DNA of 64,000 bases, taken from sequence record OQ420740.1. The stretch is one strand, 5' to 3'. Each line of letters starts with the position of its first letter. Position 1 is the first letter of the stretch. Below are positions 18,033 through 30,201 of this stretch, one piece after another. The translations under genes were made by a program, and so were the position numbers. The notes beneath the pieces were generated by a model. The model was not told where the DNA came from. It worked only from the letters and a program-made list of their open reading frames with translations, and did no database searches. The DNA is from Escherichia phage B9-1.

Positions 18033-19316
18033 TCATTCCAGAACCTCCCAAGTGTCCGGGTTAACATTTCGGACGCAGATGCCGACAGGGAATTGGTAGT
18101 TGTTGTCTTCTGTCCTTGCTTGATATTTGAAGGTGACAAACTTGCCGATCATTTCCTGCATCCTGTCATAGCTACGCTCCTCGTGCGTACCTTTCATCTT
18201 CATTTTAACAACGATACCTTCCTTGTCAACACAGATAAGAACACCTTCATCATTCTTATCTTTCTCAACGTCAATAACTTTCACCTCAGCATCGTTGAAC
18301 TTTTTCCATTTCAATGCTTCAGATGTTCGCTGACCGTATTCGTATTTACCACAGAAGTTACGCATGATAGTACCTTCATATCCTTCGGACATGAATACAC
18401 CAACAGATTCTTCGCAATGATCAACTGTGTACGCAAGCTCTGCGTCAACAACCTTGATATGGTCAAGCATCAGAGTGGTAATGGTATCTTCTGCATCCAT
18501 AAGATCCTTGCATCGTCCAGATTCTGTTTCCGGATCCCACCATACCTTGTCACTAGGGATGTCGAAAATATGATACTCTAAGTCATAGCTACAGTACCCT
18601 CCGTAACGCAAATCATCACGAACAGGCTCAACATCAACAGGAATATCTACCTTATTGAAGTTTTTGTATGTTGATAAGCCTGCCTTAATTGCGGCATGAC
18701 GGCGTTTTTTATCTGCCTCGTAGTCTTTATCGATCTCGGCCTGAATCTCTTCCTGTGTGCGCCAACGTTTAGCAAGAGACACTATTTTCTGCAGAGGCAG
18801 ACCATGAATATAGATCTCTCCGTCAAGCTGTTTAATCCCAGTGGTGAAGTGGAAAGAACGAAGTTGCTCCAGAAGCTTTCCTTGAATAGGGTAGGACTTA
18901 TTACCACGGGAAATAAATTTAGGCTCACCGTTTTGGAAAACAACCAGTAGACGAAGGCCATCTAACTTACGCAAGATCCAGCAAGGTAATTTAAGTGCCT
19001 TTCCACGCTTCAGGTAGTCATGCACCAGCATGGGTAAAAGGTCAACACCCTGCTCGCAATCTTCCATATTTTCAACATACCCCAGACGGACTTGTTTTTC
19101 CCACTTACTGATCGCTTCCAGCTCAGCCTGTTGCTCAGCTGTAGTTTCATTGGCACGACCCACGTTCTTAGGTGTGCAGATCGTCTCTTTGTATTGCAGT
19201 TTACCATCAAGCTTGCCAAACTCTACAATAACCTTATCACCATCCGTGAATACTTTCCACTGTTGGTAGCTGCCATCTTTGTTCAGTGCGTACAGTGTTG
19301 TTTTGATCTGATGCAT
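18033..19316 (-). CDS. ATP-dependent DNA ligase
   Basis: 427 aa; adenylation motif I 'RKLDGLRLLVV' (KxDGxR). Confidence 0.75.
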   Translation of the reverse strand: MHQIKTTLYALNKDGSYQQWKVFTDGDKVIVEFGKLDGKLQYKETICTPKNVGRANETTAEQQAELEAISKWEKQVRLGYVENMEDCEQGVDLLPMLVHDYLKRGKALKLPCWILRKLDGLRLLVVFQNGEPKFISRGNKSYPIQGKLLEQLRSFHFTTGIKQLDGEIYIHGLPLQKIVSLAKRWRTQEEIQAEIDKDYEADKKRRHAAIKAGLSTYKNFNKVDIPVDVEPVRDDLRYGGYCSYDLEYHIFDIPSDKVWWDPETESGRCKDLMDAEDTITTLMLDHIKVVDAELAYTVDHCEESVGVFMSEGYEGTIMRNFCGKYEYGQRTSEALKWKKFNDAEVKVIDVEKDKNDEGVLICVDKEGIVVKMKMKGTHEERSYDRMQEMIGKFVTFKYQARTEDNNYQFPVGICVRNVNPDTWEVLE

Positions 19317-19944: not shown

Positions 19945-20658
19945 TTAAATATATTCTGTTACATCCTTGAAGCTTGAAGGCTTCATAATCTTACCTTTAC
20001 TATCAAGAAATATGATAACTTTATTTCCGTTGTAGAATTCTTCTTTAGCAACAAAACCTTCATAGCGACCATCAAAGCGTCGCTCAAGATCTTTAATCTC
20101 CAACTCGATGAGTTGTTCAGCAGGCATATCTGCACTGGCACCGTGTGAATATCGCAGATGGTTGACGCGTGCAAACTTGCTGTCATTAGATTTTAGAACC
20201 TTCCGCATCATCCCGCACACATCACCGCGAAGCTGGAACAGTAAAACCGTTGACAGCTCTGCTAAGCGGTAAGCAGACGCTCTTTGCTTAGAGGTATTTT
20301 TCGCAGCGATCAGTGTATCATAAAATTCACCGATCTTAAACTTAAGACCTCGCGGGTTATCAAACAGGTTTGACCACTTTTCATGGTTATCGTTAACAAG
20401 ATAAGCGGCATAACTTGTGACAACGTGAAGATCGCAAGCCTCTTTTAGGAGATGATCTCCACCATCACCTTTCTCCAACTCTTCCAAAACTTCATTAAAC
20501 TCTTCCTCAATGAAACTAAGCTGGAGTTCGAATGGTGTGTATGATTTTTTCACTTTAGCTGCTACACGGTTCCAATTTTCCACCCAGTTGGCAGACCAAA
20601 GGTAGTTTTCAGGTTGAGACAGTTTTTCCAGGTTGTCGATCAGTTTAGTATTCAGCAT
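19945..20658 (-). CDS. hypothetical protein, weak MazG-like signature
   Basis: 237 aa; acidic helix 'EEEFNEVLEELEK...LLKEACDLHVV' reminiscent of MazG-type NTP pyrophosphohydrolases; weak. Confidence 0.3.
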   Translation of the reverse strand: MLNTKLIDNLEKLSQPENYLWSANWVENWNRVAAKVKKSYTPFELQLSFIEEEFNEVLEELEKGDGGDHLLKEACDLHVVTSYAAYLVNDNHEKWSNLFDNPRGLKFKIGEFYDTLIAAKNTSKQRASAYRLAELSTVLLFQLRGDVCGMMRKVLKSNDSKFARVNHLRYSHGASADMPAEQLIELEIKDLERRFDGRYEGFVAKEEFYNGNKVIIFLDSKGKIMKPSSFKDVTEYI

Positions 20659-20672
20659 TAAAAGGCCTCCGC

Positions 20673-21434
20673 TTACAGTTCCATAAAGTTTTCTACGATG
20701 TCAATAAATGTTTTATCAGAGAAAGCGTCAACCGCCCCGTTAAACCAAACTGGGATGCCGCGATCCTCATACTGGTAAATGTCACTACGTGAAATGCCAT
20801 TCTCCCCTAAATGCTGTGAGTCGTATTTGTTAACGATCAGCAGTTTGGTCCCCTTATTACAGGCAGGGAATAGCTCCCAGTTAAAATTGATAACTGTGTT
20901 GGAGCACCCTACAAGGATAACCATATCATTGCTCGTCAGAGAAGTCAACAGGTCATACATGTCTGTATACTTTGGAGCTACTTCTCCGAAGAACACGACA
21001 TTAGGCTTAACCCAAGTATACTTGCTTGCATCTACCTCAGAGTATCCAATGTCTTTAATGACGTTACTCCCTTCATCATCCTCGTAGACTATTTCTGGCA
21101 AATATCCGTGGACATGTAAAATATCTTCATGTTTTACACCAGCACGCTCCAGCAAATCATCTACATTGGTTGTCAGGTTGATCACGCGACCAGACCAGCG
21201 GGAATACCATTCAGCGATCCGGAGATGTGCAAGGTTAGGATCAACACTGCCCAGAGCTACACGCCGTGCATTGTAAAAGTCATGAACCTTATAATAGTTC
21301 TTGGCAAAGGTGTGGATGTTACACACCTCATCGATGCTGAAATTCTCCCACATTGCAGTGCCACCAGATCGGAAAGTTGGGATACCAGATTCAGCGCTCA
21401 AACCAGCACCGGAGATAATGATCAGTCGTCGCAT
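20673..21434 (-). CDS. SIR2-family NAD-dependent protein (sirtuin-like, no zinc ribbon)
   Basis: 253 aa; 'GAGLSAESGIPTFRSGG', 'TTNVDDLLERAG', 'HVHG', 'VVFFGE' in canonical sirtuin order; CxxC zinc module not evident. Confidence 0.8.
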   Translation of the reverse strand: MRRLIIISGAGLSAESGIPTFRSGGTAMWENFSIDEVCNIHTFAKNYYKVHDFYNARRVALGSVDPNLAHLRIAEWYSRWSGRVINLTTNVDDLLERAGVKHEDILHVHGYLPEIVYEDDEGSNVIKDIGYSEVDASKYTWVKPNVVFFGEVAPKYTDMYDLLTSLTSNDMVILVGCSNTVINFNWELFPACNKGTKLLIVNKYDSQHLGENGISRSDIYQYEDRGIPVWFNGAVDAFSDKTFIDIVENFMEL

Positions 21435-21442
21435 AAGTGTCC

Positions 21443-21793
21443 TCAGTAGATGTTTTGTTTAATCTCTATTCCAAACTTTTTAAACGAGTCAGCAGCAAGC
21501 ATGAATTTACGAGCAGCTGATGGGTTAGAAGTATGCACGAAAATCTTCACGTTGTCAACTACAGGAGGCTTACCAAATACAAATTTTTCCTCCAGCATAG
21601 ATAGGCAATCGTACCCTTCAAATACCTCTCCAAGGTCGTTGTCCATGTGCCACTCAGAAACGCGCCTGTAGAGCTTTCCCTTATCGTTAATAAAATCCAT
21701 AAACTCAGAGGAATTCTTTAGCCAAAGAGCATCTGGGAGCCCATAATTTGACGGATCTCTCAAGTCATCCAGCCACACAATCAACTTCTTCAT
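21443..21793 (-). CDS. hypothetical protein
   Basis: 116-aa ORF between SIR2 and RNA ligase; stop overlaps next start. Confidence 0.3.
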   Translation of the reverse strand: MKKLIVWLDDLRDPSNYGLPDALWLKNSSEFMDFINDKGKLYRRVSEWHMDNDLGEVFEGYDCLSMLEEKFVFGKPPVVDNVKIFVHTSNPSAARKFMLAADSFKKFGIEIKQNIY

Positions 21794-22725
21794 TGCATAT
21801 AGTCCTCGTTGTGGAAATAGCAGTCAAGTATCTCACGGCGTTCCTGCTCCAGGAGGCAATTCCACACATCTTCTGTGTAGTTTCTACGAATGAAGTTTAC
21901 CATGCCGTAAAACTCTTCGTCAACACGTTTAAAGATATCATCATCCCAAATCTTCCAAGCTTTACCCCTCATTACGGCCTTCCGTGCCAAATAGTATGGA
22001 GACTTGATCTTCAGCTGAAGATCATAAGGGTAGTAAGGCTTACGAATCATATACCCTTCACCTCTTGTTTCTGCAGCTAATTCTTTTGCATAGCTGAACG
22101 GAATTTCACGCACAGTGTGAGGACGTTTTGCACCAAGGTATTTGGCAATCCCATCTAAAGCTGCTTCTGGTAGCATTATTCCGGAATCATTATATCTGCA
22201 ACCTATCAAATATGCGCCATGATCTTCCTGAACAATATGCGGATCTGAAGGGTGACAAATTTCAAACATGAATGTCATGTTTTCATGGCCCATAACCTTC
22301 TTGATAAGATCTAAATTACCACATTGCTCCTGGATGGTTTCCTTTGCAAGGTTACAATATGGAGAATCAAGAGACCCGGTTGTTGAAAACAATAGTTCAC
22401 CTTTATGAGATGATACCACACCAAGGAATCCGTTCTTTTTCTCTACCGCCGTCACAAGTTTATTGTCAGGCAGGTTGGTGGAGTTTTCTCCCAAATTAAA
22501 CACTTTTGTGAAGGGCCATGCCACAACATTTCCTTCATTACCGACAACAATGCCTCGGCACTCTAGTAAACGCGGAGACAAATGCCATAAATTGTTGTAG
22601 AATACTTTTCTGGCATATTTGTAGATCTTTAATCCAAGATCTGGGTAATATCTGCTGGTTACAAGACCTTTGTCAACCAGGTCGTCTGCATTAAAATACT
22701 TCATCATACATTCCTCATTTGTCAT
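21790..22725 (-). CDS. RNA ligase (Rnl1-like nucleotidyltransferase)
   Basis: 311 aa; motif I 'EKKNGFLG' (compare T4 Rnl1 'KEDGSL'), motif IV-like 'GEGYMIRK', motif V-like 'LKIK'; a separate KxDG DNA ligase exists at 18033-19316. Confidence 0.55.
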   Translation of the reverse strand: MTNEECMMKYFNADDLVDKGLVTSRYYPDLGLKIYKYARKVFYNNLWHLSPRLLECRGIVVGNEGNVVAWPFTKVFNLGENSTNLPDNKLVTAVEKKNGFLGVVSSHKGELLFSTTGSLDSPYCNLAKETIQEQCGNLDLIKKVMGHENMTFMFEICHPSDPHIVQEDHGAYLIGCRYNDSGIMLPEAALDGIAKYLGAKRPHTVREIPFSYAKELAAETRGEGYMIRKPYYPYDLQLKIKSPYYLARKAVMRGKAWKIWDDDIFKRVDEEFYGMVNFIRRNYTEDVWNCLLEQERREILDCYFHNEDYMQ

Positions 22726-22768
22726 TTTGTCCCTTTATTCTGCCACACAAATAACCTGGTGTCAACAC

Positions 22769-22797
22769 TTGAAATTAACAAAACAGTTAGGTATACT
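22769..22797 (+). promoter_or_regulatory. sigma70-like promoter (TTGAAA-N17-TATACT)
   Basis: -35 at 22769-74, 17-nt spacer, -10 at 22792-97, then RBS GGAGAG and ATG 22826. Confidence 0.5.
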
Positions 22798-22825
22798 ATC
22801 ATTAAAATTAAAACGGAGAGTTACT

Positions 22826-23236
22826 ATGTCTAAAATGCTATATATCGTGCGTGGTCTACCAGGGTCTGGCAAATCAACACTGGCAAATGCGCTATCTTTA
22901 GAAGGTCTGTATCCACATTTTGAGAACGATATGTTCTGGTACGACGATGACGGCAATTACAATTGGGATGCAAGTAAAGTAACACTTGCAGCAAAATGGT
23001 GCAAAGATAACGTAGAAGATATGATGCGTATGGGCTACGACCGTATCGTGGTAAGTAATACGTTTACAAAAGAAAAATATGTGCAAGAATATATTGACAT
23101 GGCGATCAGTCATGGATATAGTTATACCGTAATCGTGGTTGAAAACCGCCATGGTAATAAAAGCATTCATGATGTTCCAGACAGGGTTGTGGATCGTATG
23201 GAACGCCAGCTTAAAAACTGCATTAAACTTAAATGA
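22826..23236 (+). CDS. polynucleotide 5'-kinase-like P-loop protein
   Basis: 136 aa from the RBS-supported ATG; 'GLPGSGKST' (T4 Pnkp 'GCPGSGKST'), 'IVVSNTFT' (T4 'VIISDTNL'), 'VPDRVVDRM'. Confidence 0.7.
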   Translation: MSKMLYIVRGLPGSGKSTLANALSLEGLYPHFENDMFWYDDDGNYNWDASKVTLAAKWCKDNVEDMMRMGYDRIVVSNTFTKEKYVQEYIDMAISHGYSYTVIVVENRHGNKSIHDVPDRVVDRMERQLKNCIKLK

Positions 23237-23243
23237 GGAATGT

Positions 23244-23798
23244 ATGAAATACTTTGTAACAAGCGACACACACTTTCTCCACCAGCGGGTAATGGAGTTC
23301 GACTCATGTCAAAAACACAGATCTCAGTATGATCACAATCTTGACAGTATGAATGCGGGAATCATCACCAAGTGGAACTCTGTTGTGTCACCTGCAGACA
23401 CTGTGTTTCACTTGGGGGATATTGCGTGCACTAATGATAAGAATATCAACAAATTGCTTCCAGATGTTCTAAATATGCTGAACGGACATATTATTCTTGT
23501 TCGTGGTAACCATGACACAAGGACGACTGTCAGAATTATGAAAGAGTTCGGTCATGAGGTTGTAGATTATTACGAGCTTCGCCACAACAAGAATTTGATC
23601 TGTATGAGCCATTACCAGTTTGCAAAGTGGAACAGAAAGCCTCACGGATCAGTCCAACTGTTCGGTCATGCTCACGGAACCACACAGCAGTTGTTTGGCA
23701 GGCAGTTTGATGTCGGTTGGGATGTGTGGGGGAGACTCTTACCATTAGAAGAGGCATACCGTATTGCAATGAGTCTTGCTATTGACAGCGGGGAGTAA
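23244..23798 (+). CDS. calcineurin-like metallophosphoesterase
   Basis: 184 aa from ATG 23244; 'VTSDTHF', 'HLGDI', 'VRGNHD', 'GHAHG' metallophosphatase motifs. Confidence 0.75.
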   Translation: MKYFVTSDTHFLHQRVMEFDSCQKHRSQYDHNLDSMNAGIITKWNSVVSPADTVFHLGDIACTNDKNINKLLPDVLNMLNGHIILVRGNHDTRTTVRIMKEFGHEVVDYYELRHNKNLICMSHYQFAKWNRKPHGSVQLFGHAHGTTQQLFGRQFDVGWDVWGRLLPLEEAYRIAMSLAIDSGE

Positions 23799-23845
23799 TC
23801 CCTGCTATTTTAAAGAAAATTGCCACACAAGGAGAATCAGGAGAT

Positions 23846-24196
23846 ATGAAAGATGGGGATAAGCTGCTATATCTTAAAGTCCCCCTTGAAATACTGTCTA
23901 TGTCAAAAGTTTTGAATGACACAACTGGGGAGGTTGTTGTTCTTGACTTATATGACAAGATCGTATACTGCTACCTGCACAACTGGTACAAGCTTGGAGG
24001 AAATTCACGCTTCACACCCAGCACAAGGAAAATTGCAGCAGATGTTGGGATAAAGAAAACAAAAGCAGCAGCGTGCGTTAAAACTTTAGAATGTGCAGGA
24101 GTGGTTGAAATATCCACACAAGGGAGAGGTAAAAGATGCACATTTTCCAAAGTTTTGCCACCAGAAGAGGTTATTCGAATGTCAACAACTGGTTAG
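23846..24196 (+). CDS. hypothetical protein (possible DNA-binding)
   Basis: 116-aa ORF immediately upstream of the iteron array. Confidence 0.35.
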   Translation: MKDGDKLLYLKVPLEILSMSKVLNDTTGEVVVLDLYDKIVYCYLHNWYKLGGNSRFTPSTRKIAADVGIKKTKAAACVKTLECAGVVEISTQGRGKRCTFSKVLPPEEVIRMSTTG

Positions 24197-26737: not shown

Positions 26738-26812
26738 GCCCTGTTAGCTTAGTGGATAAAGCAGCGGCCTTCTAAGCCGTTGACACTGGTTCGAGTCCAG
26801 TACGGGGTGCCA
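26738..26812 (+). tRNA. tRNA-Arg (anticodon UCU)
   Basis: Hand-folded cloverleaf: acceptor gccctgt/acggggt, D-stem gctt/aagc, anticodon loop CUUCUAA, T-loop TTCGAGT, encoded CCA. Confidence 0.75.
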
Positions 26813-26816
26813 AATT

Positions 26817-26903
26817 GGGGAGTTATCCCGTAGAGGTAGCGGTGTAGACTGTAAATCTATTGTCATTGCGACTCGGGTGGTTCGACTCCACCACTCCCCA
26901 CCA
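26817..26903 (+). tRNA. tRNA-Tyr (anticodon GUA), long variable arm
   Basis: Acceptor ggggagt/actcccc, anticodon loop CUGUAAA, T-arm ggtgg-TTCGACT-ccacc, encoded CCA, 87 nt. Confidence 0.7.
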
Positions 26904-27017
26904 AATTTATATTTTTAAATGCATAAATCATACAGATAATGACATTGATATTTATCGTCGTTTATACTAGTCACTAACTGCTCGAAAATCAGTGTCATTA
27001 TCAGTGTAATTTATAAA

Positions 27018-27108
27018 GGAGGGTAGGGAGCAATGGTGCTCAAGCGGTCTTGAAAACCGTCCCGTTGAGGATGACTCGATGATGGTTCGATTCCATTACT
27101 CTCCGCCA
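27018..27108 (+). tRNA. tRNA-Ser (anticodon UGA), long variable arm
   Basis: Acceptor ggagggt/actctcc, anticodon loop CUUGAAA, T-arm gatgg-TTCGATT-ccatt, encoded CCA, 91 nt. Confidence 0.7.
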
Positions 27109-27206
27109 CATTGTTGACCTTGTAATTAAGCGAAAGCCGGAAGCAGAACCGGATTATCAAATGTTACAGTCGTCATCGCCGACTAGCCACATGGTCAACA
27201 TATTTC

Positions 27207-27305
27207 GCTAGGTAAGCCCTTTGGCAAGGGCGAGGATTTTTAATCCTGAAAATAGACGAGGTAGTCGTTGAATACATAGGTGGTTCGATTCCATCACCTA
27301 GCACC
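27207..27305 (+). tRNA. atypical tRNA-like element (99 nt), identity unresolved
   Basis: Perfect 7-bp acceptor gctaggt/acctagc, D-arm gccc...gggc and T-arm ggtgg-TTCGATT-ccatc, but about 30 extra nt between anticodon region and T-arm; a possible UUU anticodon loop 'tttttaa' is non-canonical. Confidence 0.35.
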
Positions 27306-27309
27306 TTTT

Positions 27310-27385
27310 GCTGATGTAGCACAATTGGCAGTGCAATTGATTTGTAATCAATAGGTTGCAGGTTCAAGTCCTGCCATCAGCACCA
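27310..27385 (+). tRNA. tRNA-Thr (anticodon UGU)
   Basis: Acceptor gctgatg/catcagc, D-stem gcac/gtgc, anticodon loop UUUGUAA, T-loop TTCAAGT, encoded CCA. Confidence 0.75.
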
Positions 27386-27386
27386 T

Positions 27387-27461
27387 GGCCCTGTAGCTGG
27401 AAGGTTCAAGCAAGCGACTCATAATCGCCAGACGGTGGTTCAATTCCACCCAGGGCCACCA
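27387..27461 (+). tRNA. tRNA-Met (anticodon CAU; initiator, elongator or Ile2 type not distinguishable)
   Basis: Acceptor ggccctg/cagggcc, anticodon loop CUCAUAA, T-arm ggtgg-TTCAATT-ccacc, encoded CCA. Confidence 0.7.
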
Positions 27462-27472
27462 AATAATAAATA

Positions 27473-27549
27473 CTCCGCGTAGCTCAGCTTGGTAGAGCGC
27501 CTGATTTGGGATCAGGAGGTCGAGTGTTCGAATCACTCCGTGGAGACCA
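27473..27549 (+). tRNA. tRNA-Pro (anticodon UGG)
   Basis: Acceptor ctccgcg/cgtggag with C1-G72, D-arm gctc-agcttggta-gagc, anticodon loop UUUGGGA, T-loop TTCGAAT, encoded CCA. Confidence 0.75.
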
Positions 27550-28370: not shown

Positions 28371-28654
28371 GAGTTACTGCACTGGTTGTTTTGTGCTTGT
28401 TATTGTGTGGGTGTGCAACCAGCGTTGAGAGAGAATACAAGATTGACCCTCCGGATGTAGGAAGGTTGATTGTTAAACCTCCCGAGGGTGCTATGAAACC
28501 ACCTGCTAAAGCTATCCCTTTGAAGAAAGGTGCGCCAGATGCGGTGAATTCTGGCATTATGAGGGATAATAACCTGTCTTGTAGTAATGATAGAGCTAAA
28601 TTGATCATTTTGCAAGACTATATAAGAACACTGTTTCCAAAGGAGAGAGGTTAA
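28367..28654 (+). CDS. o-spanin (Rz1-like outer-membrane lipoprotein)
   Basis: 95 aa; signal peptide with lipobox-like 'LLLCGCAT', proline-rich mature region; ATGA overlap with the i-spanin. Confidence 0.55.
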   Translation: MRVTALVVLCLLLCGCATSVEREYKIDPPDVGRLIVKPPEGAMKPPAKAIPLKKGAPDAVNSGIMRDNNLSCSNDRAKLIILQDYIRTLFPKERG

Positions 28655-30201
28655 TGTCTAAGATTTACGGACCGTGTTCTGAAAAGCAGAAGATGATCCT
28701 AGAGAACGATGCAGATATTTTGGTGATCGGAGGTGCAGCTGGGTCTGGCAAGTCGTTCCTCTTGCAGCTAATGCCGCTTAAAATTATTGATGACCCGCAC
28801 AGCTCTGTGGTTATGTTCCGAAGAACAACTCCACAGTTGGAAGGTGAGGGTGGTCTATGGCCTAAAGCAGTAGCTATTTACAGTGATCTGCCTGAAAACA
28901 TTAAACCAAAGTTCAGAGAGAAGGATCATAAGTTTATTTTTCCACGGTTTGATCCGAGCACTGGCAAGTGGGACAGGAGCAAAAAAGGGGCCGTTGTAAA
29001 ATACTGCCACATGGAGTATGTCCAAGATAAGCTTAACCATCAAGGCCTTGAGTACACCATGGTTTGCTTCGATGAAGGCACGCAATTCGACTGGGAGCAG
29101 ATAGACTATTTGATGTCTCGTCTGCGATCTCCGTCAAAGTATCCGTCAAGAATGGTTATCAGTTGTAACCCCGACTCAGAACACATGCTTGCCAAACTGG
29201 TCAGGTGGTGGTTGGACGATGAAGGGTATCCAGATCCGGAGAAATGTGGTAAGAAAAGATATTTTATCCGACGCGACGGTGAATTTATTTGGGGAGACTC
29301 TAAAGAAGAGTTAATAGAGAAATACACCACGGTTAACGGACTGGGTGTGGAGATCAAGCCAAGACCGTTGTCATTCTCGTTTATAGGCGCAACAATTTTC
29401 GATAATCCTGTCTGCTTGAGAGACAACCCAGAATACCTTGCTTTCCTTGAAGGTCTGCCCGAGCTTGAAAAAGCCCAGCTTCTTCATGGCAACTGGTTTG
29501 CCAAACCTGAAGGTGCAAACTATTTCCAAAGATCTTTCCTTCGGGATGCCGATAGAGTACCTCTTGGATCAGTATCTTGCAGGGCATGGGATAAGGCAGG
29601 AACCGAGAGAACTTCCGGTAATAAATTTCCTGACTTTACCGCCAGTGTTAAGGTAAGTAAAGATAGCGACGGCTTTTATTACCTGTCCGGGGATTATTGT
29701 CCTGAGAACGTGGATGACGGTAGGTATTCCACGGGTCTGGAAGGCAAGTTCTGTAAAAAGGCTGGGGAACGAGATGTGATCATCAGGAAACAGGCGCAGT
29801 TTGATGGAGATGATTGCATAATCGTATTTTCTGTGGACCCCGGTCAGGCAGGTAAGAGTGAGTTCTTAACCTCGTCCAGATCCTTGCTCGCCGAAGGGTT
29901 CAGGGTTGAAGAAGATCCAATGCCTTCCAACAAATCTAAGCTGACAAGGTTCTCACCCTTTGCCAATCTTGCCCAACAAGGAATGGTGAGGATTGTAAAA
30001 TCCAGTTTCCATCCTGACACTCTGGAAGCATTTCTAACTGAACTTGAAAAGTTCAACGGGGAAAGATCAACATTTAACAGAAAAGACGACTGGGCCGACT
30101 GTGTAGCTTCTGCGATTAATTTCCTGGAGAAAGAGGAGGTAGCGCTGCCTTGTGTGATTCCATCAATCTCATCACCTTCTATGTTCAAGCGTTTTATCTA
30201 A
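28654..30201 (+). CDS. terL: terminase large subunit
   Basis: 515 aa; Walker A 'VIGGAAGSGKSF' near the N-terminus, size and position before the portal gene. Confidence 0.85.
   Translation: MSKIYGPCSEKQKMILENDADILVIGGAAGSGKSFLLQLMPLKIIDDPHSSVVMFRRTTPQLEGEGGLWPKAVAIYSDLPENIKPKFREKDHKFIFPRFDPSTGKWDRSKKGAVVKYCHMEYVQDKLNHQGLEYTMVCFDEGTQFDWEQIDYLMSRLRSPSKYPSRMVISCNPDSEHMLAKLVRWWLDDEGYPDPEKCGKKRYFIRRDGEFIWGDSKEELIEKYTTVNGLGVEIKPRPLSFSFIGATIFDNPVCLRDNPEYLAFLEGLPELEKAQLLHGNWFAKPEGANYFQRSFLRDADRVPLGSVSCRAWDKAGTERTSGNKFPDFTASVKVSKDSDGFYYLSGDYCPENVDDGRYSTGLEGKFCKKAGERDVIIRKQAQFDGDDCIIVFSVDPGQAGKSEFLTSSRSLLAEGFRVEEDPMPSNKSKLTRFSPFANLAQQGMVRIVKSSFHPDTLEAFLTELEKFNGERSTFNRKDDWADCVASAINFLEKEEVALPCVIPSISSPSMFKRFI

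Follow-up and report, generated by a model that had tools for sequence, protein, structure and literature searches.

Organization of the locus

The stretch of DNA analyzed here (the window) comprises 64,000 nucleotides of Escherichia phage B9-1 (OQ420740.1) and shares 97-99% identity with many rV5-like phages. Three intact adjacent genes at 21790-23798, initially annotated as an RNA end-healing and sealing cassette, are present as open reading frames with small boundary corrections, and the motifs quoted for the ligase, kinase and phosphoesterase that they encode fall on family-invariant positions. The three genes stand, while the extent of the cassette is larger than proposed, since the genes for cREC, a Sir2-family protein and a MazG-like protein share the ligase operon. 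The features of the region are as follows:

18033-19316: separate phage DNA ligase
19945-20658, minus strand: MazG-like nucleotide pyrophosphohydrolase (phrog_671), at the end of the tight ligase-cREC-Sir2 run and loosely linked to it
20673-21434, minus strand: Sir2-family protein (PF02146), accessory gene in the ligase operon
21443-21793, minus strand: cREC (cyclic-phosphate-processing receiver-like) protein (PF20274)
21790-22725, minus strand: Rnl1-family ATP-dependent RNA ligase, 311 aa, predicted nucleophile K96
22726-22825: divergent control region, 100 bp, with back-to-back sigma-70-like sites (consensus matches only)
22826-23236, plus strand: P-loop kinase of the polynucleotide-kinase type, encoded on its own, 136 aa, predicted to act on RNA 5'-OH ends
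23244-23798, plus strand: metallophosphoesterase of the binuclear type, 184 aa, predicted to act on RNA 3' ends as a 2',3'-cyclic phosphodiesterase and 2'/3'-phosphomonoesterase
26738-27549: tRNA cluster, 7 genes (ARAGORN) or 6 (Rfam)

Both arms of the cassette are tightly packed. The metallophosphoesterase frame begins 7 nt past the kinase stop, and a GGAG sits 8 nt 5' of the kinase ATG. On the opposite strand the ligase stop and the cREC start overlap by 4 nt (ATGA), which couples cREC translationally to the ligase; the Sir2 gene starts 8 nt after cREC in the same leftward operon. Other genes intervene between the cassette and the tRNA cluster 3 kb away.

The ligase gene and the kinase-phosphoesterase pair had been described as divergent from a shared 100-bp region with a near-consensus promoter. 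The layout holds, and promoter-like sites are found on the plus strand (TTGAAA-17-TATACT, 22769-22797) and on the minus strand (TTGACA-17-CAGAAT with an upstream TG, 22765-22737), both being consensus matches only. Eighteen such sites were counted in 3 kb, versus 8.0 +/- 3.0 in shuffled sequence. Divergence is not a general trait of these loci: it is limited to the window and a single close relative in IMG/VR, while in the other IMG/VR loci a kinase or phosphoesterase gene, where separate, is co-directional with the ligase.

Protein families of the three core enzymes

The 311-aa protein belongs to the Rnl1/Trl1 clade of RNA ligases, as profile and structure searches agree. It scores 55.7 bits against PF09511 (RNA_lig_T4_1; cutoff 28.3) and covers the entire model (1-227). 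Motifs I (K96-x-N98-G99), IV (E223-G224) and V (K239/K241) align with KEDG, EGY and KIK of T4 Rnl1, and the motif III column E155 with its FEF; the K96, E155, E223-G224 and K239/K241 columns do not vary in 35 relatives. The residues invariant across relatives (R57, K74, F76, K96, G99, E155, E223, G224, K239 and K241) align with essential positions of T4 Rnl1. The fold lies nearer to Rnl1/Trl1 than to Rnl2, Rnl3, Rnl5, DNA ligases or capping enzymes. Structure searches thus ruled out a DNA ligase or capping enzyme, and a separate DNA ligase is present in the window. A single-sequence search of the PDB with the ligase gave nothing useful, and a family profile was required; this sequence profile detected T4 Rnl1 only and not Trl1. 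The protein is about 20% identical to T4 Rnl1 and falls far under the cutoff of the T4 RnlA equivalog TIGR02308 of NCBIfam (38.9 bits versus 242.25). Its C-terminal region is also much shorter, with about 65 residues past motif V, whereas the all-helical tRNA-specificity domain of T4 Rnl1 spans about residues 255-374, roughly 120 residues. The true start is probably M7 or M8 (22707 or 22704), because a GAGGA ribosome-binding site precedes it, residues 1-7 are modeled with pLDDT below 50, and the orthologue of phage Bas54 is annotated with 305 aa.

The kinase had been said to track the kinase domain of T4 Pnkp, and by both profile and structure it does group with polynucleotide and RNA kinases. 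It matches PF13671 (AAA_33; E=2.7e-10), phrog_2071 (E=2.2e-58) and phrog_505, 'polynucleotide kinase' (E=3.1e-10). As with the ligase, a single-sequence PDB search was uninformative and a family profile was required, which returned PSTK (4.7e-5), Pnkp1 (4.9e-5), T4 Pnk (1.2e-4) and C. thermocellum Pnk (6.8e-4), all with modest E-values; adenylate kinases matched this profile at the P-loop only. In a Foldseek search with the AF2 model (pLDDT 84.5), T4 Pnk (1LY1) and C. thermocellum Pnk came out on top, and TM-scores were 0.72-0.76 for Pnk-type kinases versus about 0.50-0.54 for NMP kinases. Profile and Foldseek comparisons therefore rule out a dNMP or adenylate kinase. Since the phage encodes a DNA ligase elsewhere and a near-identical phage carries an annotated dNMP kinase, those roles are already filled.

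The P-loop (G10-T18, with K16 and S17) and D35, which aligns with D35 of T4 Pnk, do not vary in 40 relatives. The invariant residues are K16, D35, T79 and R108, where T79 is equivalent to T86 of T4 and R108, in an invariant ENRH motif, is the candidate lid arginine. No equivalent was aligned to R38 of T4 Pnk, the arginine that contacts the phosphate on the 3' side of the acceptor nucleoside; residues 38-42 of T4 Pnk are an insertion relative to the profile, and no invariant arginine lies there. A polynucleotide is therefore no more than a putative phosphate acceptor of this kinase.

The product of the third gene is a calcineurin-type metallophosphoesterase. It scores above the cutoffs of PF12850 (28.5 versus 27) and PF00149 (27.8 versus 21.5), matches phrog_547 (E=5e-51) and has a complete metal site, whose ligands D8, H10, D59, N89, H90, H123, H142 and H144 do not vary in 28 relatives. 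The initial annotation had likened it to the phosphatase of bacterial Pnkp, which is correct at the level of the superfamily only. Among all PDB sequences its family profile recovered 1XM7 (aq_1665 of Aquifex, 7.5e-25) and, weakly, GpdQ (4e-4) and the Metallophos protein 6UNC (2e-3) and no others, hence neither the C. thermocellum Pnkp phosphatase nor lambda phosphatase; placement in the Pnkp/lambda-phosphatase clade is unsupported by this search. We know of no characterized member of the aq_1665-like family. The NCBIfam matches, PdeM and YfcE, are both sub-threshold, and all of the top 120 relatives are stand-alone proteins of 171-235 aa without fusions.

Linkage of the three genes across viral lineages

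We surveyed 80 ligase-centered IMG/VR loci, whose ligases are 36-89% identical to that of the window, with their flanks within 10 kb; clustering at 70% ligase identity gave 41 lineages. Within 10 kb of the ligase, a kinase was present in 73 loci, a phosphoesterase in 62 and both in 59, which corresponds to 37, 35 and 33 of the 41 lineages, respectively. Kinase-ligase fusion proteins of 421-432 aa exist in two lineages (11 loci). That the trio stays together in 33 of the 41 viral lineages, and is partly fused in two, indicates that the three genes are functionally linked. Sir2 (4 lineages), MazG (4) and cREC (3) are found beside the ligase far less often. The ligase-kinase-phosphoesterase trio is thus a conserved core, to which certain lineages have added sirtuin, cREC and MazG. 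Our analysis establishes to which family and fold each protein belongs, that the catalytic residues are intact, how the operon is built and that the trio is strongly coupled in evolution. The kinase and phosphoesterase families have thousands of members each. In unrelated freshwater phage contigs a phosphoesterase gene likewise lies directly 3' of the kinase, and in unrelated phage contigs the pair adjoins Rnl2-type RNA ligases. A PADLOC search for known defence-system proteins returned weak P-loop matches only.

The neighborhoods also bear on a possible role in DNA replication or repair, in which kinase and phosphoesterase would process DNA termini with 5'-OH and 3'-phosphate groups, as is known of mammalian PNKP and T4 Pnkp, and the presence of the 'RNA ligase' would be a coincidence. 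Mammalian PNKP is among the structural matches of the kinase, an ATP-dependent DNA ligase is the top neighbor of the trio elsewhere (9 of 149 neighboring ORFs, 34 loci), and PdeM, a DNA-damage-response enzyme associated with a ligase, is a weak match of the phosphoesterase. Yet the PdeM match is far under its cutoff (20.6 bits versus 150), and the closest partner, fusions included, is an Rnl1-family RNA ligase, which makes DNA-end processing very improbable.

Accessory genes and the NAD+-dependent alternative

The cREC protein matches PF20274 with 53.3 bits against a cutoff of 27 (E=4.5e-14), and its invariant residues D9, D10, D51, N52, D53, S89 and K96 (11 sequences) form a Rec-like acidic pocket; its catalytic role is a prediction (PMC7824862; PMC9503650). 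The Sir2 protein matches PF02146 (E=1.1e-26) with an invariant GAGxS motif and H109, and falls under every NCBIfam CobB equivalog cutoff. The MazG-like product matches phrog_671 (E=5.5e-22) and has no match in Pfam or NCBIfam; in 4 of the 41 lineages its gene is 1-6 kb away from that of the ligase. As accessory genes, Sir2 and MazG are restricted to the rV5-like phages and related ones.

These genes are central to a published proposal of an NAD+-dependent, yeast-type pathway (Iyer et al., 2022; PMC9503650). There, cREC would open the cyclic phosphate and leave a 2'-phosphate and a 3'-OH, the kinase and an Rnl1/Trl1-like ligase would seal the break, Sir2 would transfer the junction 2'-phosphate onto NAD+ in the manner of Tpt1/KptA, and the metallophosphoesterase and MazG would clear the resulting ADP-ribose cyclic-phosphate. 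The single operon with its overlapping ligase and cREC genes and adjoining Sir2 gene speaks for this pathway, as do the retained acidic pocket of cREC and the NAD-binding motif and catalytic histidine of Sir2. Furthermore, cREC also adjoins an unrelated Rnl2-type ligase (contig L096), and NAD+ salvage genes are the commonest non-ligase neighbors of the trio in other phages. The distribution of the genes argues against it, with Sir2 in 4 and cREC in 3 of 41 lineages versus 35 for the phosphoesterase. Beside the orthologous ligases of the other lineages no Sir2 or cREC was seen within 10 kb on either side and no Tpt1 or 2H enzyme within 3 kb, the latter two being missing from the 25 commonest neighbor families; these counts refer to flanks and not to whole genomes. 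Orthologous ligases would therefore work without Sir2, cREC, Tpt1 or 2H in the searched flanks. In addition, the ligase profile recovers only T4 Rnl1 and not Trl1, and we know of no sirtuin with 2'-phosphotransferase activity. Altogether we consider the yeast-type pathway unlikely as an account of the cassette.

A narrower version, in which the ligase-cREC-Sir2 operon of rV5-like phages would provide a second, NAD+-consuming repair branch, appears rather doubtful as well. Here cREC would act as a metal-independent cyclic phosphodiesterase leaving a 2'-phosphate, and Sir2 as an RNA 2'-phosphotransferase with Tpt1 chemistry. If true, this would be a new sirtuin reaction and would tie phage RNA repair to the NAD+ salvage genes that often neighbor the trio in other phages, an idea already published as a prediction (PMC9503650).

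A predicted heal-and-seal pathway

The reading that we favor, and consider reasonably likely, is that the trio constitutes a phage three-enzyme 'heal-and-seal' pathway for RNA. We infer its substrates, the order of its steps, tRNA as its target and its role in counter-defence. The metallophosphoesterase would open and strip a 2',3'-cyclic (or 2'/3') phosphate to yield a 3'-OH, and in the rV5-like lineage cREC may assist in opening the cyclic phosphate. The Pnk-type kinase would use an NTP to phosphorylate the 5'-OH, with D35 as the putative general base and K16/S17 in the P-loop. The ligase, adenylylated on K96, would then transfer AMP to the 5'-phosphate, and attack by the 3'-OH would reseal the strand. 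Agreeing predictions have been made before (PMC9503650, section 3.7.3; PMC7824862, section 3.4.9; PMC12846349). Several features count against it, namely the missing R38 counterpart in the kinase, a phosphoesterase whose profile finds no known RNA 3'-end phosphatase, and the low RnlA score and short C-terminal region of the ligase.

Transposon data and host dependence

Transposon data exist for Bas54, a 97%-identical phage: on K-12 only cREC is scored as 'Intermediate', and the remaining five of the six genes as non-essential. Between K-12 and a clinical isolate no significant change was seen for the six genes (log2FC +0.13 to +0.43, adjusted p >= 0.75). The K-12 calls fit the heal-and-seal reading, because an accessory or conditional module is expected to behave so, and the lack of change between the hosts speaks against it. 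In the same screen the T-even pseT orthologue was conditionally required in a clinical isolate, so repair genes of this kind matter on some hosts. Also against the reading, the tRNA-cleaving retron Eco2 is reported still to restrict Vequintavirinae.

Transposon insertions also bear on the name under which the ligase appears in many GenBank records, which was carried over from T4 RnlA/gp63 and would make it mainly a tail-fibre attachment catalyst. In T4 and Bas37 insertions in rnlA are depleted, and the transposon-screen paper ascribes to it an essential N-terminal domain. The Bas54 orthologue, by contrast, is hit at 56 of its 60 TA sites and scored as non-essential, on which ground we reject tail-fibre attachment as the main function. 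The ligase gene, moreover, lies apart from the tail genes, sharing an operon with cREC and Sir2 within the arm for replication and nucleotide metabolism, and in other phages it is fused to the kinase, which likewise renders this role barely credible.

A housekeeping role in phage RNA processing, be it maturation or rejoining of the tRNA-cluster transcript or repair of collateral cuts by phage RNases, could also be envisaged. The six genes are located at the junction of the early/replication arm with the arm carrying the tRNA cluster, the cluster contains an odd tRNA-like gene of 97-99 nt, and in Bas54 no host-dependent phenotype was seen. Nevertheless, the K-12 calls in Bas54, with cREC no more than 'Intermediate', imply that no obligatory processing step relies on the six genes. 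No splicing endonuclease was identified, and an unsystematic inspection found the trio in phages without an adjacent tRNA cluster in the searched flanks. We thus regard housekeeping as quite improbable.

Comparison with known repair systems

The cassette as such is already known, from computational prediction (PMC9503650) and from annotation in more than 100 phage genomes in GenBank. Iyer, Burroughs, Anantharaman and Aravind (2022; Viruses 14:1977, PMC9503650, section 3.7.3) described the same locus in phage V5, their prototype of a predicted RNA-repair system, and in Proteus phage Mydo. The six genes in 19945-23798 correspond to their type 2 neighborhood, composed of a sirtuin, a T4-like ligase, cREC, a nucleotide kinase and MazG, to which a calcineurin-like phosphoesterase may be added. 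That study places the sirtuin at the center and treats the phosphoesterase as occasional, whereas in our survey the trio with its phosphoesterase is the core in 33 of 41 lineages.

Three further systems offer comparison. T4 Pnkp (PseT) and Rnl1 reverse the damage done to tRNA-Lys by the anticodon nuclease PrrC. They share with the cassette a 5'-kinase, a 3'-end phosphatase and an Rnl1-family ligase, and T4 Rnl1 and T4 Pnk are the best sequence and structure matches of our ligase and kinase. Here, however, the kinase is a separate 136-aa protein, and the phosphatase is a binuclear metallophosphoesterase instead of a HAD (DxDxT) domain. The bacterial Pnkp/Hen1 and Pnkp1-Rnl-Hen1 systems (Clostridium thermocellum; Capnocytophaga gingivalis) also combine a Pnk-type kinase, a calcineurin-type phosphoesterase and an RNA ligase, but in one polypeptide or a fixed complex with the 2'-O-methyltransferase Hen1. 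In the phage cassette the genes are separate, the phosphoesterase clade differs, and no Hen1 was noted among the annotated neighbors. Fungal and plant Trl1 with Tpt1 rely on a 2H cyclic phosphodiesterase and need a 2'-phosphate that Tpt1 later removes, while here the metallophosphoesterase is the constant partner, with no 2H or Tpt1 seen in the flanks.

As a sequence finding, our analysis is a small gain over existing annotation and publications. Immunity by tRNA cutting is now regarded as widespread and includes PrrC, RloC, PARIS, several retrons, Cas13 and HEPN toxins, and T4 Pnkp with Rnl1 is, to our knowledge, the only phage repair answer backed by experiment. The rV5-like phages are a tractable E. 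coli group for which saturated transposon libraries exist. Demonstrated activity would give both cREC and the aq_1665-like phosphoesterase family a function and, if a cognate host nuclease were shown as well, RNA-repair counter-defence would reach far past the T-even phages.

Gene organisation and phage lineage

A search with 2.5 kb of the window (21400-23900) as query matched 119 phage records, and in 117 of these the match covers 80% or more of the query. The closest relatives are Escherichia phages ECP2303 and ECP2309 (99.4% identity), and rV5 derivatives and the BASEL phage Bas54 (MaxBurger) follow at ~97%; this high identity to rV5-type records places the window in an rV5-like myovirus (Vequintavirus). 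As proposed in the initial annotation, three open reading frames occupy 21790-23798, with the ligase gene divergent from the kinase and phosphoesterase genes across a 100-bp spacer. The three genes stand, but the extent given for the cassette was too short: it overlooked the leftward run of the ligase into cREC (cyclic-phosphate-processing receiver), Sir2 and MazG-like genes.

19945-20658, minus strand: MazG-like gene, 14 nt beyond Sir2
20673-21434, minus strand: Sir2 gene, 8 nt beyond cREC
21443-21793, minus strand: cREC gene (PF20274, E=4.5e-14), its start overlapping the ligase stop
21790-22725, minus strand: Rnl1-family RNA ligase, 311-aa ORF
22726-22825: spacer between ligase and kinase, 100 bp
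22826-23236, plus strand: kinase, 136-aa ORF
23244-23798, plus strand: metallophosphoesterase, 184-aa ORF, 7 nt past the kinase stop, with GAGGA upstream

By consensus match alone, the spacer carries a promoter-like site on each strand, TTGAAA-17-TATACT on the plus strand and a TG-extended TTGACA-17-CAGAAT on the minus strand, and the -35 boxes of these opposed sites lie 3 bp apart. The true start of the ligase is probably M7 or M8, because GAGGA lies just upstream, residues 1-7 are disordered in the structural model and the Bas54 annotation gives 305 aa.

Enzymes of the module

The ligase was rightly recognised as Rnl1-like. It exceeds the cutoff of Pfam RNA_lig_T4_1 (55.7 vs 28.3 bits), and PHROGs groups it with T4 RnlA-type proteins (E=2.7e-66). 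A PDB search with the single sequence gave no match; a 35-sequence family profile retrieved T4 Rnl1 (E=3.3e-13) and no other ligase. The family-invariant residues of this profile (R57, K74, F76, K96, G99, E155, E223-G224 and K239/K241) align, in the same order, with R54, K75, F77, K99, G102, E159, E227-G228 and K240/K242 of T4 Rnl1, which we take to be the essential residues known from mutagenesis in the Shuman laboratory. T4 Rnl1 is also the best Foldseek match (E=1.3e-12) of the AlphaFold model (pLDDT 89.6). Only ~65 residues follow motif V. Orthology to T4 RnlA itself was ruled out, the TIGR02308 score of 38.9 bits being far short of the 242-bit cutoff. The phage has its own ATP-dependent DNA ligase, encoded separately at 18033-19316.

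Pfam assigns the kinase to AAA_33, and PHROGs to phrog_2071 and, more weakly, to 'polynucleotide kinase'. Its family of stand-alone proteins of ~130 aa is very large, with all but 12 of 8000 scored candidates at E<=1e-3. A 40-sequence profile matches PSTK, Capnocytophaga Pnkp1, T4 Pnk and the C. thermocellum Pnkp kinase domain over the full length (E=5e-5 to 7e-4), while adenylate and shikimate kinases align near the P-loop only. D35 aligns with the catalytic D35 of T4 and T79 with T86; T4 R38 lacks an aligned counterpart in this profile, and the lid arginine may be supplied by the family-invariant motif E106-N107-R108-H109. In fold, the model (pLDDT 84.5) is nearest to T4 Pnk and C. thermocellum Pnk (TM 0.72-0.76), NMP kinases being poorer (TM ~0.5), so that the suggested kinship with the T4 Pnkp kinase domain is borne out. 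A separate dNMP kinase is annotated in the 97%-identical phage HMD-6.

The phosphoesterase passes the cutoffs of both Metallophos Pfam models and matches phrog_547 (E=5e-51); its metal ligands D8, H10, D59, N89, H123, H142 and H144 are invariant in 28 relatives (28-50% identity). In the PDB, the family profile finds Aquifex aq_1665 (1XM7; no assigned function) at E=7.5e-25, together with GpdQ (weakly) and the unnamed Metallophos protein 6UNC; the Pnkp phosphatase of C. thermocellum and lambda phosphatase are not among its hits. The earlier description of a calcineurin-type enzyme 'as in bacterial Pnkp' thus holds for the superfamily but not for the clade. The family exceeds 7000 members, and the best 120 are all stand-alone proteins. 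At one viral locus (L095, 4001-5085), which has no kinase close by, the gene for a phosphoesterase of this family runs into the start of a gene for a SpoU-family RNA 2'-O-methyltransferase, an arrangement reminiscent of methylation by Hen1 in bacterial RNA repair.

Conservation across viral loci

A ligase-profile scan of IMG/VR yielded 80 loci with flanks of up to 10 kb and ligases 36-89% identical, in which ORFs were called and searched by jackhmmer with the window's proteins. The kinase is present in 73 of the 80 loci, the phosphoesterase in 62 and both in 59. After clustering of the ligases at 70% identity into 41 lineages, the kinase is retained in 37, the phosphoesterase in 35 and both in 33. 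Sir2 and MazG each occur in 4/41 lineages and cREC in 3/41, all in phage genomes of ~90-150 kb resembling rV5-like phages. Loci sampled by way of the kinase or of the phosphoesterase agree with this picture. Most commonly the order is phosphoesterase-ligase-kinase or kinase-ligase-phosphoesterase on a single strand; apart from the window, a single close IMG/VR relative has the kinase-phosphoesterase pair inverted. At 11 loci from two lineages, kinase and ligase are fused, kinase N-terminal, in one ORF of 421-432 aa, and the 10 kb around these fusions yielded no phosphoesterase of the window's family.

L059, 9527-10825: kinase-ligase fusion ORF (also in L046, L047, L050, L052-L054, L056, L061 and L062)

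In freshwater phage contigs the kinase-phosphoesterase pair is directly adjacent with an Rnl2-type ligase nearby, and in one such contig a cREC gene adjoins an Rnl2-type ligase. This conservation shows that the trio of ligase, kinase and phosphoesterase is a conserved module, whose healing pair is able to combine with different ligases. Conserved co-occurrence gives a joint heal-and-seal function its strongest computational support.

Proposed repair pathway and possible links to NAD+

A T4/Pnkp-like pathway is the most economical reading: the metallophosphoesterase would remove the 2',3'-cyclic phosphate, the kinase would phosphorylate the 5'-OH, and the ligase would seal via a K96-AMP intermediate. 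According to a published alternative (Iyer et al., 2022; PMC9503650), cREC makes a 2'-phosphate end and Sir2 strips the junction 2'-phosphate with NAD+. The operon coupling of cREC and Sir2 to the ligase in this phage speaks for such a route, as does the ligase's equal structural distance to Trl1; yet most lineages carry an orthologous ligase and the phosphoesterase without any Sir2 or cREC in the flanks that were searched, and sequence profiles detect T4 Rnl1 only. We consider the alternative unlikely for this lineage, although the NAD+ route could act as an additional branch. The observation in the initial annotation is confirmed and its reading borne out in part: the predicted enzymology of the trio is well supported by computation, and its proposed biological role is plausible.

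Genes flanking the ligase were tallied in 34 representative lineages without Sir2 and cREC, most with the full trio, which gave 149 ORFs up to 3 kb away. The commonest Pfam families among them are DNA ligase 9, NAPRTase 8, Pribosyltran_N 6, NAMPT_N 5, NUDIX 3, cytidylyltransferase-like 3, Macro 2, HAD_SAK_2 2 and Rnl2-type ligase 2; Tpt1/KptA, 2H and cREC are absent from the 25 commonest families. The cassette thus often adjoins NAD+ salvage genes. In many phages, salvage or reconstitution genes (NAPRTase/NAMPT, PRPP-synthetase-like, NMNAT-like, NUDIX, Macro) lie by the trio, and they may be a sign of anti-defence islands or of a genuine link between NAD+ and RNA repair.

L004, 1-2595: NAD+ salvage genes beside the trio
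L005, 6931-10927: NAD+ salvage genes beside the trio
A3 (34 loci): Pfam tally with NAD+ salvage families among the commonest neighbours

Dispensability in a close relative

Bas54 (MZ501093; 97.1% identity to the query) was mutagenised in the HIDEN-SEQ preprint (10.1101/2025.11.20.689424). In its reference library, insertions hit 35/40 TA sites of the MazG-like gene, 48/51 of the sirtuin, 56/60 of the RNA ligase, 33/36 of the kinase and 26/27 of the phosphoesterase, all called 'Non-essential'. Among the six Bas54 orthologues, only cREC (bas54_0208) is called otherwise: with 16/21 sites hit and lower read counts it ranks as 'Intermediate' in the reference library, and the first-attempt library rates it 'Strong fitness defect', a cost that could stem from polarity or from toxicity of an unbalanced pathway. 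Between K-12 and a clinical isolate the six genes showed no significant change (log2FC +0.13 to +0.43, adjusted p >=0.75), and the anti-defence hits reported for Bas54 are other genes, while the Bas37 pseT orthologue is conditionally important in a clinical strain (10.1101/2025.11.20.689424). Insertions are depleted in rnlA of T4 and Bas37 but tolerated in the rV5-type ligase, for which an essential tail-fibre role was thus ruled out. The module behaves as accessory. The tRNA-cleaving retron Eco2 still restricts Vequintavirinae.

Flanking genes

The tRNA cluster expected ~3 kb downstream lies at 26738-27549, with seven genes by ARAGORN, six confirmed by Rfam; HMD-6 is annotated with just three.

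27018-27108, plus strand: tRNA-Ser(TGA), an ARAGORN call under the Rfam gathering score
27207-27305, plus strand: tRNA-like gene of unusual length (97-99 nt), unannotated in HMD-6
23846-24196, plus strand: DUF6945/HTH_36 protein, directly downstream of the phosphoesterase
28654-30201, plus strand: large terminase, single intact 515-aa ORF

ARAGORN gives the tRNA-like gene a 4-base anticodon (atcc), and Rfam scores it as tRNA at 35.5 bits only. It folds with acceptor, D-like and T arms and a long extra arm; its anticodon loop is ambiguous, UUUUUAA being readable as UUU. GenBank names for the DUF6945/HTH_36 protein vary (transcriptional regulator, replication initiation protein, DsrC-like). Its orthologue bas54_0212 has ~13 transposon reads vs 140-400 in neighbours, so that this gene may matter for growth. 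The terminase is annotated as two pieces in HMD-6 and as a first piece followed by a homing-endonuclease gene in Bas54, which suggests a mobile insertion absent from the window phage.

Relation to earlier descriptions

The RNA-repair system of rV5-like phages is already known, as a prediction. Matching records carry the names 'RNA ligase', 'polynucleotide kinase' or 'AAA/ATPase', and 'phosphoesterase', and one labels cREC as a 'cyclic-phosphate processing receiver domain-containing protein'. 'Escherichia phage V5' is the named prototype of precisely this gene neighbourhood (Iyer et al., 2022; PMC9503650), and both the cREC-ligase linkage and the occasional replacement of HAD by calcineurin-like phosphatases in phage RNA repair have been described (Iyer et al., 2021; PMC7824862). 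A Pakpunavirus kinase-ligase pair was read as tRNA repair in a 2025 genome paper (PMC12846349); from the gene context in Pseudomonas phage PE09, we infer that this pair (the Adele proteins) probably belongs to the same module. What is new here is modest: kinase-ligase fusions exist, the phosphoesterase belongs, by its profile, to an aq_1665-like clade that is uncharacterised, only this phage lineage has the divergent layout, and the trio, rather than the sirtuin, is the conserved core.
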